From: Pirellulales bacterium
Lineage (GTDB): Bacteria; Planctomycetota; Planctomycetia; Pirellulales; PALSA-1355
Reading direction: 5' to 3'
Assembly: GCA_963733035.1 (NCBI GenBank)
Contig: CAVTBU010000008.1
Span: 64,001-128,000 of the forward strand
Length of the DNA: 64,000 bases
A program made the translations under genes and the position numbers. Under the pieces are notes generated by a model, which saw only the letters and a list, made by a program, of their open reading frames with translations, was not told the DNA's origin and made no database searches. Below, in pieces: positions 446-6,257 of the stretch. Positions within the stretch are counted from its first letter, which is position 1. Every line of letters starts with the position of its first letter.

Positions 446-1909
446 TCAGGGTCCGGGCCGCATGGCCTGATACGTCGGTTGCTGCGTGGCCTGGCTAGCG
501 GCGGCAGTATAGTGTTGCTCATTCTGCTCGAACTGGGCTCGCGAGGCCTCGTTGGCAAACAGGTAAATCTTGCCATCCGCGCCAAACACTCCAAATTCTC
601 GCTTGCCGGGCACCGACGAGTGATTGTCGATGGCCATCACCGGGTCCAGGCCCGACATGACCGGGGCATAGCGATCCGGTTCGGCCAAGAACTTCTCGCG
701 CTCTTGTGGCCCTAGAAACAGATACGTCCGACCGCGATGCACGGCGCCAAATGTCGGGTGTCCTACGGCCCAGCGTTTACGTTCCACGAGCGTGACCGGA
801 CAATTCCCGTCAAGAGCCAGGGGTGGGCACCCAGCCGGAATCGGTGGCAGTTGCACCTGCGGCGCCAAAGACGCTTGGGTCACCTGCGATGGCGGAGCCG
901 CATAAGGGTTGGCAGCGGTTTGCGCAGCCGGCGGCTGTGCAATAGGCTGACCGGTCGGAGGCGCCGCGGCATAAGGATTCATGGCCGTGGGTGGTTGAGC
1001 AGCCGGGGGTTGCGCATAGGGATTCGTGCCGACCGGCGGCTGGTTCGACGGCGGTGCGTATGGATTGGCGCCATTCGTAGCGTACGGATTGGCCGCGGGC
1101 GGAGTGTTGGCCGCGTACGGATTGGCGGCGGGTGCCGCTACGGGCGGAGCCGCGGCAGGCGCTTGAGCGTAAGGGTCGTGTAGCGGCGCGCCTTGTGTGG
1201 CGGGTGCCGACGACGGTACCGCGGCATAGGCCTGTGCCGGCGTCACCTGTCCGGCCGGCGCCGAGGGTGGCGCGGCTTGACCGTTTGGAAAGTACTCCGC
1301 ATAGGGGTCAGTACCTTGCAAGTTTGGCGACTGACCTGCGGGCGGTGTGCTCGGACCTGCGACGGCGGCAGCAGGCGGAGCCGAATAGGGGTCCTGCGTC
1401 ATGCCAGCCCCAGCGGCTGGTTGCGTACCCGGCGCGCCGGGTGCCGCAGCCGGCGTATCGGCCGACGCATCACTCACTCTCCGCGCAAGTGCCCGGTGTC
1501 CGGCCGCGGCCTGGTTCATTTGCTGCACGTATTGCGACGCAGTCGGCGGGCTCTGTAGTTGAGAAACCAATCGGCCAGACGGCGTGGTAATCACGTCCGA
1601 GGGCAAGCTCGATACGCCATACAGTCTGGCGGTTCCCGGCGCCTCATCGGCATTAAGCTTCACAACCACGAAATTGCTTTCGAGTCCTTTGGCCGTCTCC
1701 GGTTTACTGAAGACTTCCTGCTCCATGCGCATACACGGTCGGCACCAGGGAGCCCAGAAGTGAATCAGCACCAGGCGGTTGGATTGAGCCGCCAGGCGTT
1801 GTGCCGTTTCGAGATTCTTCTGCCAAGGCATTTGGTTCTCGGCCGAAGCCGTCGCCGCACAAATCGCCAGCAATAAGGCGGTGGTGGTGAATTGAAAAAT
1901 CGCCCGCAT
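446..1909 (-). CDS. Secreted thioredoxin-like protein with Pro/Ala-rich linker and C-terminal YHS-like domain
   Basis: Signal peptide, WCRPC CxxC motif, repeated NPYA units, ALDGNCPV...TYLF...FLAEPDRYAP. Confidence 0.8.
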   Translation of the reverse strand: MRAIFQFTTTALLLAICAATASAENQMPWQKNLETAQRLAAQSNRLVLIHFWAPWCRPCMRMEQEVFSKPETAKGLESNFVVVKLNADEAPGTARLYGVSSLPSDVITTPSGRLVSQLQSPPTASQYVQQMNQAAAGHRALARRVSDASADTPAAAPGAPGTQPAAGAGMTQDPYSAPPAAAVAGPSTPPAGQSPNLQGTDPYAEYFPNGQAAPPSAPAGQVTPAQAYAAVPSSAPATQGAPLHDPYAQAPAAAPPVAAPAANPYAANTPPAANPYATNGANPYAPPSNQPPVGTNPYAQPPAAQPPTAMNPYAAAPPTGQPIAQPPAAQTAANPYAAPPSQVTQASLAPQVQLPPIPAGCPPLALDGNCPVTLVERKRWAVGHPTFGAVHRGRTYLFLGPQEREKFLAEPDRYAPVMSGLDPVMAIDNHSSVPGKREFGVFGADGKIYLFANEASRAQFEQNEQHYTAAASQATQQPTYQAMRPGP

Positions 1910-2165
1910 GGGAGAACAGCCCCCCTCTGTGGAAAAGACTTCGAGGTGATCTGAGGGCTGTATCGGTTAGCCACCTTGCTCCAGTTTGGTAAATCTTGCC
2001 GGTAAACTGGAGATTGGCGAACCGGGGTTTTTCATCGGGCGTATTGCTGATTGGGACGCCATTTTCAACGGCATGTGAAAGCGTCGACTGCTGGCACAGT
2101 CGGCGCAGTCGCCCTCCCATTTGTGAAAATCTTCCCAGTCTCCCGCAATATCGCTCGAGACTCGC

Positions 2166-2193
2166 TTGACATTGGTCGAGAGATGACTAAGAT
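2166..2193 (+). promoter_or_regulatory. Sigma70-type promoter upstream of the rho leader
   Basis: TTGACA (2166-2171), 16-nt spacer, TAAGAT (2188-2193). Confidence 0.65.
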
Positions 2194-2197
2194 GGCC

Positions 2198-2597
2198 ATA
2201 GTTTTAAGCTCTGCCACGCAGGCAGGCGCCGTGGCTCATGAGTAGTCTCCGGTTGAGGTCGTCTCAGATTGAGACAGTCCCTGCCGGGACCTTGATTCGC
2301 CGGAAAGTGAATCGATGGGCCCCCCCAAGGTGAATAAGACGCTGAGCGTCTTTGCTACTGGGGAAATGAGACGCTTCTGGACTTGGCTCCCGTCGTGAAA
2401 CGTGCGGGAAAGGTCGCGCACGATGGCGGCCAATTGCTTGAATTGCCCGTGAGCCGAATGGGTCGGGCTTCCTTGCGTGAACCGTTTATTCGCACGAGGG
2501 GTAGACGGCCCAAGAGTCCATCCAAGCGACTTGGCGACGCGGGTATTTCGCTGCCGGAACACGGCTGCCGAAAAGGTATGACGGCACCTGGAACTAT
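2198..2597 (+). ncRNA. Candidate large structured RNA / rho 5' leader of unknown class
   Basis: Begins at the predicted TSS; 5' ATAGTTTTA pairs with 3' TGGAACTAT; more than 12 mostly nested helices found by eye; no convincing ORF. Confidence 0.5.
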
Positions 2598-2831
2598 AGT
2601 CGGCTAAAAAGGTTTTCAAGAATCTCGTCCTCGGAATGGGCGCTTCTCTTGCAGAACGTCCAGACCGCGACGAGTGGGGTTTTCGATCTTCGTCACGTGA
2701 CGAAGAACGGCTTCTAGTAAGGGCATTCGGCATCGACGCTGAACCGCCGCTCGATTGTTTCCGCTCGCAAGCCGCGCGCGTGGTCTGCACTCGCGCGCTC
2801 GTTGAGTCGTGGTTTCTTTTCAGGGTGAATC

Positions 2832-4145
2832 ATGGGTAAACGCAAAAAGGGTCGTGCTCGCGGGCGTGGAGGCATGGGAGGCCAAATGGGAGGCGGCGGT
2901 GGCGGGGGGGGACCGCACAACGGTCGATCTCGTGGCCGCGGCGGACGACGGTTCAACAAGGACCAAGGCGATCGTCCACCTTATAGCGAAGCCGATCTGG
3001 CCGCCGACAACGGGGAACCGGGTGCCATTGAACCGGGGATCGGTGTTCTCGAATTGCATCCCAATGGTTACGGCTTTCTACGTAACCCCAAGACAAATTA
3101 TCTTCGCGAGCGATCCGATCCATTCGTGCCCGGCACGATGATCGACAAGTTCGGTCTTCGCGAAGGTGTCTTGATCAATGCCATGGTTCAGCAGGCCCGC
3201 AAGCAGCAGGGCCCCCGGGTCAAGGAAATCGTCGACGTCGACGGCATGAAGCCGGAAGAATACGTCAACGTGAAGAGTTTTGACGCTCTGACGCCGATCA
3301 ATCCGGAAAGCTGGTTGCGGCTCGAAACGGGCCCAACACCGCTCAGTACACGCGTGATGGACCTGCTCACACCTCTGGGCAAGGGCCAGCGTGCTCTGAT
3401 TGTAGCCCCGCCCCGCACGGGCAAAACGTTCCTTCTGCAGCACATTGCGAACGCAATTTCGACCAACTATCCCGAACTCACGTTGATGATGCTGCTCGTT
3501 GACGAGCGGCCGGAAGAAGTAACCGATATGCGGCGCTGCGTCGAAGGCGAGGTCATCGCCAGCAGCCTGGACCGTGACGTCGAAAGCCACGTCCGCCTTT
3601 CGCAGCTCGTCGTCGAGCGCGCCAAGCGTCTGGCCGAAATGGGCAAGGACGTCTTTCTGCTGATGGATTCCATCACCCGCATGGCCCGGGCCTTCAACAA
3701 GTGGGTTGGCAACACCGGCCGCACAATGTCCGGCGGCGTCGATATCAAGGCCCTCGACATCCCCAAGAAGCTCTTCGCCACCGCCCGTGTGTTTGAGGAA
3801 GGTGGCTCACTGACCATCGTGGCCACGGCCCTGGTCGATACTGGTAGTCGCATGGATGAATTGATCTTCCAGGAGTTCAAAGGCACCGGCAACATGGAAC
3901 TGGTGCTCGACCGCAAGCTGGCCGACCGCCGCGTATGGCCGGCCATTGATATCTCGCAGTCGGGCACGCGCCGCGAAGAAAAGCTGCTCGATCCCGAGAC
4001 ATTGCATGCGGTAAACATGCTTCGACGCACGCTTTCCACGATGCATCACGTCGATGCCATGGAACAGCTGACGAGCAAACTGGCCAAGTTCAAATCGAAC
4101 CGGGAATTCATCAGCCTCATCAGCAGCGCTCAAGCGGCCGACTAA
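2832..4145 (+). CDS. rho: Transcription termination factor Rho with Gly/Arg-rich N-terminus
   Basis: GVLELHPNGYGFLR RNA-binding domain, GKGQRALIVAPPRTGKT Walker A, DERPEEVTDM, IFQEFKGTGNMEL. Confidence 0.97.
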   Translation: MGKRKKGRARGRGGMGGQMGGGGGGGGPHNGRSRGRGGRRFNKDQGDRPPYSEADLAADNGEPGAIEPGIGVLELHPNGYGFLRNPKTNYLRERSDPFVPGTMIDKFGLREGVLINAMVQQARKQQGPRVKEIVDVDGMKPEEYVNVKSFDALTPINPESWLRLETGPTPLSTRVMDLLTPLGKGQRALIVAPPRTGKTFLLQHIANAISTNYPELTLMMLLVDERPEEVTDMRRCVEGEVIASSLDRDVESHVRLSQLVVERAKRLAEMGKDVFLLMDSITRMARAFNKWVGNTGRTMSGGVDIKALDIPKKLFATARVFEEGGSLTIVATALVDTGSRMDELIFQEFKGTGNMELVLDRKLADRRVWPAIDISQSGTRREEKLLDPETLHAVNMLRRTLSTMHHVDAMEQLTSKLAKFKSNREFISLISSAQAAD

Positions 4146-6173: not shown

Positions 6174-6255
6174 GGAGGGTAAGCGAATGGCTAGCGGCGA
6201 CACTGGAAATGTCGTGCCGGGTAACCGGTTGCGGGTTCGAGTCCCGTGCCCTCCG
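6174..6255 (+). tRNA. tRNA-Ser(GGA); integration target; CCA not encoded
   Basis: Acceptor GGAGGGT/GCCCTCC plus discriminator G; anticodon arm CGACA-CTGGAAA-TGTCG; long variable arm GCCGG-GTAA-CCGGT; T-arm GCGGG-TTCGAGT-CCCGT. Confidence 0.93.
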
Positions 6256-6257
6256 CT
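6202..6257 (+). repeat. att core, left copy (3' half of tRNA-Ser from the anticodon arm)
   Basis: ACTGGAAATGTCGTGCCGGGTAACCGGTTGCGGGTTCGAGTCCCGTGCCCTCCGCT, identical to 22932-22987. Confidence 0.95.

Follow-up and report, generated by a model that had tools for sequence, protein, structure and literature searches.

A conserved family of structured leader RNAs upstream of rho in part of the Pirellulales, a candidate cis-regulator of Rho level

What occupies the long gap upstream of rho in a planctomycete? In a Pirellulales bacterium (NCBI GenBank assembly GCA_963733035.1), 922 bp of intergenic DNA lie between a thioredoxin-like gene (446-1909, minus strand) and rho (2832-4145, plus strand). 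Coordinates are those of the window, which is the whole stretch of DNA that was analysed: 64,000 nucleotides (nt) of contig CAVTBU010000008.1, positions 64,001 to 128,000. An earlier note on this DNA had seen in the gap a terminally closed RNA of about 400 nt and three domains (2198-2597), to be read either as a free-standing non-coding RNA (ncRNA) or as a complex cis-regulator of rho. The observation was partly confirmed and the interpretation partly supported. The favoured reading, held with moderate confidence, is that a strong and conserved sigma-70-type promoter drives transcription of a rho mRNA whose 5' untranslated leader is 2198-2831; that this leader belongs to an uncatalogued family of structured rho leader RNAs present in part of the Pirellulales; and that this family most likely sets the level of Rho in cis, with feedback attenuation as the preferred mechanism. 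The second option of the earlier note, an unclassified cis-regulator, is supported in that the element is conserved, single-copy, located upstream of rho, equipped with covarying hairpins and without a match in Rfam.

The transcript can be placed by its promoter. A scan of 1800-3000 found a single sigma-70-type site, at 2166-2193 (one found, 0.4 expected). This is the TTGACA-16-TAAGAT promoter of the earlier note, which had put the start near 2200, about 630 nt before rho, and it is kept in 19/19 leaders extracted from relatives of the family and in 10/10 leaders of other families. From the promoter spacing and a conserved RUAGUUU, the transcript start is predicted at about 2198-2201, giving a leader of about 632-634 nt up to the rho ATG (2832). 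A second, internal promoter at TTGAC motifs was considered and rejected: no matching -10 was seen by eye and the scan gave only one promoter. Terminator-like sites between the promoter and rho are hardly more frequent than chance would give (two found, 1.4 expected), and none stands out. At the far end of the leader, CAGGUGA and ATGGG are kept in the leader alignments. The leader is present once in its own genome, and it is therefore not a repeat or a mobile element.

Conservation of this leader is concentrated at its ends. BLAST of 2150-2831 against 60 relatives gave matches in 22 of the 32 genomes of the same family, and these fall into only two blocks: one at about 2155-2243, which spans the promoter plus the transcript's first 45 nt, and one at about 2674-2795, just before rho. 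BLAST finds hardly any similarity from 2244 to 2673, and the rest of the genus (three genomes) is no exception; matches in this middle region at E <=0.01 are weak or short only (for example E 0.003 and 69% identity in genome G007). All 17 family loci that show both blocks together with rho have them on one strand, with the 5' block first, then the 3' block and then rho. Leader length is 429-779 nt among 19 leaders and 410-941 nt at eight further loci; compact forms measure 390-430 nt and expanded forms about 940 nt. The spacing between the blocks differs between leaders by non-multiples of three. Full leader alignments show a mosaic of conserved motifs with insertions at the tips of hairpins.

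The conserved hairpins (H1-H3 in the 5' part, H6-H8 in the 3' part) are supported by compensatory base changes in three alignments. A3 is a plain MAFFT alignment of 15 compact leaders, with a structure obtained by RNAalifold from A3 itself. A5 contains H7 and H8 from 32 sequences, aligned by covariance model R1, which was built from alignment A4. A6 contains H1-H3 from 30 sequences, aligned by covariance model R2; as A2, a MAFFT alignment of the 5' domain, places the 3' arm of H2 in the wrong register, R2 was built on A2 with the structure of the majority register, and the sequences were then realigned. In A3, 94.8% of the cells of 58 pairs are paired and double changes occur at 17 pairs, against 7.4±1.8 in shuffled alignments (0/500 reach the observed number) and 5-6 when the partners are slid. 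The same counts for A5 are 20 pairs, 96.8% and 12 double changes (4.0±1.2 shuffled, 0/500; 1-7 slid), and for A6 17 pairs, 93.1% and 11 double changes (5.5±1.0 shuffled, 0/500; 1-4 slid). Because the sequences are related, the shuffle control overstates significance; the slid-partner controls keep the relatedness and are still two to three times lower than the observed values. G·U pairs are also conserved, in 28/30 sequences at the H7 column pair 12/54 and in 22/28 at the H8 pair 77/111 (A5), which identifies the plus strand as the RNA.

The 5' domain (2198-2383) consists of H1, H2 and H3, the last a hairpin of a C-run with a G-run, followed by an apparently single-stranded CGCUUCU motif. H1 is part of the minimum free energy (MFE) structure of the full leader, with a mean pair probability of 0.60, and 97.2% of its cells in A6 are paired. 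Its stem differs in other families while pairing is kept (CUACC/GGUAG, GCCUG/CAGGC, AUCUG/CAGGU and UGCC/GGCA, by eye). H2 has double changes at five of its six pairs in A6, and per-sequence folds give the stems GGCCCA/UGGGCC, GGCUCAC/GUGAGCC, GGCCCU/AGGGCC, GGCUCG/CGGGCC, AGCACCCA/UGGGUGCU and CGCCCAAA/UUUGGGCG; its pair probability in the full leader of the window is only 0.13. Where compact relatives have a loop of 12-20 nt at the tip of H2, the window genome has a private insertion of about 75 nt (2240-2314), which contains three of the hairpins listed in the earlier note. All five pairs of H3 show double changes (A6); the tip is variable and here carries the hairpin AAGACGC/GCGUCUU (2336-2352). 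The motif with the CGCUUCU core is found as GCCGCUUCUGGCCC and GGCGCUUCUUC in leaders of families f6 and f28.

In the 3' part of the leader, H7 is the most widely conserved module and, with H8, makes up model R1. Double changes occur at 7/11 pairs of H7, with 97.6% of the cells paired (A5). H8 is invariant in the family; with other families added, double changes appear at 5/9 pairs (A5). The conserved 3' domain with these two hairpins extends from 2674 to 2753, H8 lies 77-103 nt from the ATG in 18 family leaders, and the conserved element as a whole reaches the Shine-Dalgarno sequence. In some leaders (L003, L004, L016, L019, L080, L064 and L103) a further H7-like hairpin in tandem (CGAUUUUCG...) precedes or adjoins the conserved H7, which suggests duplication of the module. 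The features of the window are collected in Table 1.

Table 1. Positions of the rho leader features and of rho in the window.
Feature	Position	Strand	Details
Sigma-70-type promoter	2166-2193	+	TTGACA (2166-2171), 16-nt spacer, TAAGAT (2188-2193); promoter scan
H1	2211-2225	+	CUGCC 2211-2215, loop ACGCA, GGCAG 2221-2225; within the invariant 5' motif of the family
H2	2233-2321	+	GGCUCAU 2233-2239 / AUGGGCC 2315-2321; arms from per-sequence stems
H3	2323-2363	+	CCCCA 2323-2327 / UGGGG 2359-2363; pair probability 0.78, in MFE structure
Apparently single-stranded motif	2368-2383	+	GAGACGCUUCUGGACU; core CGCUUCU kept across families (alignments)
Variable, strongly self-pairing middle	2384-2636	+	Domains 2 and 3 of the earlier note; lineage-specific sequence and length
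Hairpin at the place of family H6	2638-2661	+	GGGCG.UUCU/AGAACGUCC; local fold
H7	2684-2709	+	CGAUCUUCGUC, loop ACGU, GACGAAGAACG; U-rich and C-rich flanks; pair probability 0.94, in MFE structure
Conserved linker between H7 and H8	2710-2721	+	GCUUCUAGUAAG; alignment A4
H8	2722-2748	+	Outer helix GGC/GCC, inner UUCGGC/GCUGAA; in MFE structure; pair probability 0.45 outer, 0.89 inner
Most C-rich 60-nt window of the leader	2733-2792	+	C 23, G 17; C/G 1.33; candidate Rho loading site
GC-rich hairpin before the ribosome-binding site	2770-2799	+	Seen when 2768-2802 is folded alone; sequence varies between genomes
Shine-Dalgarno sequence and rho start codon	2822-2834	+	AGGGUGA 2822-2828; start codon 2832-2834
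rho coding sequence	2832-4145	+	437 amino acids; Pfam Rho_RNA_bind 4.8e-13, ATP-synt_ab 5.2e-24

The conserved core differs from the three-domain structure that had been drawn for the excerpt. All the complementary segments listed there are present in the sequence. The closing helix (2198-2206 with 2589-2597), however, depends on the excerpt ending at 2597; within the full leader the mean probability of its pairs is 0.02, and all other aligned leaders are gapped at its 3' arm (alignment A1). The closure of domain 1 by CTCAT/ATGAG has a pair probability of 0.005, and the conserved pairings are instead H2 and H3. Domains 2 and 3 and most of the inner hairpins of domain 1 are lineage-specific and not conserved features. 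Conservation and covariation upstream of rho were found in relatives for the 5' and 3' domains. The window leader is predicted to have a middle that folds in its own way. In this genome domains 2 and 3 may well form, yet selection has not kept them across the family.

The family is confined to part of the order. Model R1 was run on 151 genomes of the Pirellulales with a completeness of at least 90%. It matched 14/15 genomes of the window's own family, 3/4 of f28, 3/6 of f6, 1/13 of f22 and 1/14 of f19, with no match in the other 21 families sampled of the order. Besides the family to which the window genome belongs, at least four others of the Pirellulales have the leader. There is one match per genome, except for a duplicated contig pair in genome G019. 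The two G019 contigs (C63 and C391; L190 and L210) carry the 3' part of the leader with identical score at contig ends, which looks like an assembly duplicate. Outside the family, 9/9 matches lie directly upstream of rho on the same strand. These genomes keep the promoter, the RUAGUUU start and an H1 with altered yet complementary stems, and R2 (the 5' domain) also finds four of them. In a class-wide sample R1 matched 0/150 other genomes, including three large families (0/36, 0/36 and 0/31). Five further families inspected by hand have long gaps and promoter-like sites before rho, with partial likeness to the window leader or none; long leaders of about 390-940 nt before rho are also found in families with different sequence modules.

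Simple motif searches add less. The exact 5' motif occurs in 21/32 family genomes, and outside the family in 6/368, compared to six matches for a reversed control; it is therefore uninformative outside the family, where covariance models are needed. A scan of a genome collection with the 5' pattern gave, among the matches listed, mostly chance matches and at least 23 loci with promoter context; the leader loci among the matches listed are in Pirellulales, Planctomycetia, 'Planctomycetaceae' and Thermoguttaceae metagenome-assembled genomes (MAGs). In a pattern scan of metagenomes, 6/32 matches are real rho leaders (three of these identical), and the remainder are chance matches in unrelated contexts. 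One contig assigned to a Solirubrobacterales (Actinomycetota) MAG, L080, has a complete planctomycete-type rho leader followed by rho; it is probably mis-binned.

A second, longer Rho paralogue exists besides the orthologue in all five Pirellulales genomes searched with the window Rho (G037, G046, G043, G055 and G050, the source genomes of L183-L187). Its open frames are 516-644 amino acids long and have 49-52% identity to the window Rho over residues ~68-430. Model R1 matches the leader once per genome, so that the paralogue is without this leader. The window Rho itself begins with a low-complexity extension rich in Lys, Arg and Gly (MGKRKKGRARGRGG...GGGGGGGG...RGRGGRR; window 2832-2960) before the RNA-binding domain, and a similar extension is visible in relatives. 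The divergent neighbour encodes a 487-amino-acid protein with an N-terminal thioredoxin fold; C-terminal YHS and FAP206 matches are below or near the cut-offs. The only tRNA gene of the window is a tRNA-Ser (GGA) at 6174-6256.

Known RNA classes do not account for the leader. No family of Rfam 15 (4227 families) matched at gathering score anywhere in the 64-kb window, which answers the first check proposed in the earlier note, and searches by E-value of 1900-2900 (E <=10) and of the compact leader L013 (E <=5) gave matches at chance level only. The weak matches were rejected: SrbA on the minus strand (18.7 bits against a threshold of 69), Bacilli-1, NPPA-AS1_3 and, on L013, Bcj11 are all far below their thresholds. 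As had been noted before, tmRNA and RNase P signatures are absent from the window by ARAGORN (tmRNA) and by Rfam, and among the riboswitch models of Rfam no known aptamer class matches. The leader resembles the large RNAs of Rfam (RNase P, tmRNA, 6S, OLE, GOLLD, HEARO, ROOL, raiA and riboswitches) in its size, its covarying hairpins and its tip insertions; it differs from them in lacking a match to any of the models and in being strictly tied to one downstream gene.

How might such a leader act? The family shares one plan: a conserved 5' domain, a middle of variable length with lineage-specific hairpins, and a conserved 3' domain in which H6, H7, H8, a modestly C-rich stretch and a GC-rich hairpin lead up to the ribosome-binding site. 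Under feedback attenuation, Rho would load on the few exposed pyrimidine-rich segments on either side of H7 and in the C-rich window that follows H8; loaded Rho would stop transcription before or early in rho, and the hairpins would keep the remainder of this long untranslated RNA closed to Rho. A modest excess of C over G recurs just behind H8 in relatives, and by eye such a window, 86-117 nt ahead of the ATG, ranks first or second in C content in most of 36 leaders. Feedback attenuation is probably the mechanism, and it is favoured because of the analogy with known rho autoregulation; regulation of rho in cis is something that we infer, as are any termination and the role of Rho as the effector. 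That H7, its flanks and the 5' motif are invariant in sequence points to a specific partner; candidates are Rho or some other protein, a small RNA and a ligand.

Several observations weigh against this reading. The leaders are G-rich (whole-leader C/G 0.84 in the window genome and 0.70-0.99 across leaders), and C/G in the best C-rich window is just 1.2-2.0 over the 36 leaders, which speaks only weakly for a Rho loading site of the classical kind. More of the sequence of H7 and of the 5' motif is kept than pairing demands, and a non-Rho protein, a small RNA or a ligand would fit this equally well. With regard to structure, A5 and A6 were fitted to their own models, so that their pair counts are biased towards the structure, and the structure of A3 was derived from A3. 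The family helices of the mid-domain (A3 columns 172-278) have a pair probability of about 0 in the window leader; enforcing all the family helices on it gives -244.9 instead of -260.7, at a cost of 15.8 kcal/mol. Folding energy is also of limited use. The excerpt 2198-2597 does fold better than dinucleotide shuffles, a comparison that the earlier note had proposed (-170.6 kcal/mol, z = -3.92; 0/100 shuffles fold as well), with z = -2.69 for its minus strand and z = -2.53 for the full leader of the window genome (20 shuffles). This is not a property of the family, however: for the compact 429-nt leader L013, z is -1.20 and 16/100 shuffles fold as well. The low z of the excerpt therefore owes much to perfect hairpins in the private insertions of the window genome, and the value for L013 rules out the folding z-score as evidence at family level.

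Structured rho leaders have a precedent. The closest is Pseudomon-Rho (RF01720), an RNA of about 100 nt with two hairpins in rho 5' untranslated regions, confined to Pseudomonas and listed as cis-regulatory (PMC2864571, Weinberg et al. 2010). The window leader is like Pseudomon-Rho in several respects: both are conserved and structured, lie ahead of the rho coding sequence in its untranslated region on the rho strand, are restricted to one bacterial lineage and are classed as cis-regulatory without a demonstrated mechanism. It is unlike it in its length (390-940 nt), its at least six conserved hairpins, its lineage-specific insertions and its occurrence in the Pirellulales. The RF01720 model has no match at gathering score in the window, at E <=10 in 1900-2900 or at E <=5 in L013, and no sequence likeness was seen. 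The window leader is thus a new RNA family of a known kind, the structured cis-acting rho leader. The 'Rhodopirellula-1' motif of the same paper (PMC2864571) is short and unrelated. The earlier note had found so much structure unexpected, since known rho autoregulation uses unstructured C-rich sites; this is fair for those systems, but a structured rho leader motif was already in print (Pseudomon-Rho, PMC2864571). No description of a planctomycete rho leader was found in the full-text literature (main texts and, of the supplements, only that of PMC2864571) or in Rfam 15.

Known rho autoregulation offers a second comparison. The enterobacterial rho leader is shorter (about 250 nt) and has C-rich, poorly structured Rho loading sites. 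The window leader is unlike it in being G-rich and densely paired, with covarying hairpins. In bacteriophage lambda, the terminator tR1 has split Rho loading sites around a hairpin (rutA-boxB-rutB). H7 with its pyrimidine-rich single-stranded flanks resembles this layout, a lead only, with no homology found. The likeness to the rho attenuator leaders of E. coli, Salmonella and other bacteria (reviewed in PMC6582626) lies in a long leader between a strong promoter and rho, which is the expected site of feedback control.

A boxA/nut-type site in the leader was also considered. The 16S rRNA leader of the window genome (L211 ~3190-3215, minus strand) has two TTGACA promoters and a motif GAUCUUUGACAAUU, which we take to be boxA-like from the E. 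coli consensus. The motif GCUUCUUGAC of the rho-leader family matches it at 7/10 positions (own count, no statistics), which may be chance, and the likeness is loose. The 5' arm of H7 in the window genome also shares nine bases, UUCGAUCUU, with the rRNA-leader stretch that ends in GAUCUUUGACAAUU; this too may be chance.

The foremost alternative is a sensor RNA, either like a riboswitch or answering to a protein or small RNA, which would gate read-through or translation of rho on a signal other than Rho itself. It would do so by switching between the local hairpins H1 and H6 and a long-range helix of 13 bp, in which the invariant 5' motif GCAGGCAGGCGCC (the 3' half of H1 plus five bases) pairs with GGCGYGCUGYUUGY (the 5' half of H6), 340-420 nt downstream. 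RNAalifold on the 15 compact leaders picks this helix with its 13 pairs; 96.4% of the cells are paired, and the five variable positions are all C<->U opposite G. The mutually exclusive local hairpins are just as well kept (H6: 8 pairs, 96.7% of cells, two double changes). A sequence kept for two pairings would explain the near-invariance of the 5' motif, and the conservation of this motif and of H7 beyond pairing needs also agrees with a sensor. When duplex partners of the 5' motif are ranked, the H6 region comes first in 17/27 leaders and second in six more (equivalence of the sites judged by eye; no shuffle control).

Set against this, the long-range helix has no double compensatory change. 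Both of its strands are nearly invariant, so that conserved complementarity follows from conserved sequence. In the window genome 2/13 of the pairs are broken (11 hold; 2218-2230 with 2639-2652), and in the three other members of the genus the top three sites do not include the H6 region. The helix was not seen by eye in leaders of other families, where the local H1 covaries. There is no terminator after H6 and no match to a riboswitch family. With no double change, and with the site outside the top three in the rest of the genus and unseen in other families, the switch is a minority reading, possible but unlikely. The stronger form, a new class of large sensor RNA in which the 5' motif toggles between H1 and the long-range helix with H6, and possibly with a third site 44-70 nt before the start codon, is unlikely as well. 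If it were true, a ligand, protein or small RNA would decide whether RNA polymerase or ribosomes reach rho. A pairing of the 5' motif (CGCC/GCC) with the Shine-Dalgarno GGUG, proposed by RNAalifold, has only 3-4 invariant pairs and was dismissed as unsupported.

The hairpins could also be passive. They would then shield a long leader from premature Rho or from nucleases, and conservation would reflect this need together with promoter-proximal DNA signals. The leaders are indeed G-rich and densely paired throughout, the middle is free to vary while it folds, and leaders of ~390-940 nt precede rho in families with differing modules too. Shielding nonetheless leaves the near-invariant loops and linkers unexplained, as it does CGCUUCU, the sequence of H7 and the linker UUCUAGUAAG across families, and it gives no reason for keeping so long a leader. 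It is quite unlikely to be the whole account.

The first option of the earlier note, a free-standing ncRNA of ~400 nt that is closed by pairing of its ends and merely lies upstream of rho, is very improbable. It has in its favour the strong conserved promoter, the good folding of the excerpt with paired ends (z = -3.92) and the 5' domain as the best-conserved part within the family. However, the closing helix and ~2384-2636 are private to the window genome, the pair probability of the closure falls to 0.02 once the real downstream sequence is included, and there is no terminator before rho. The conserved H7 and H8 lie downstream of where the RNA was proposed to end, and their spacing to the ATG varies little (77-103 nt, 18 leaders); the element was never found away from rho. 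The conserved element does not end at 2597 as a discrete three-domain RNA; it runs on to the start codon.

That the conservation reflects small protein-coding open reading frames (ORFs) or DNA-level sites and not RNA is hardly credible: ORFs of 64-184 codons do overlap the leader region on both strands and translated searches give short matches in relatives, but these matches span just 17-55 residues, on both strands alike and over the same conserved nucleotide blocks, no leader ORF is kept at full length or has a Pfam match, inter-block lengths vary by non-multiples of three, and the signals seen, compensatory changes and conserved G·U pairs, are those of an RNA.

How the level of Rho is set is a central regulatory question, as Rho shapes the whole transcriptome. 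To our knowledge, this control has been studied almost only in proteobacteria and Bacillus, and we know of almost no characterised RNA regulation in the Planctomycetota. The rho leader provides a concrete candidate for a regulatory RNA in this phylum, with a defined promoter, at least six conserved hairpins and conserved unpaired motifs, and at least five families offer natural variants of it, from compact to expanded. A structured, G-rich leader fits awkwardly with the textbook loading of Rho on C-rich RNA that lacks structure; from it one could learn how Rho proteins with Gly/Arg-rich N-terminal extensions, such as the one encoded here, recognise their targets.

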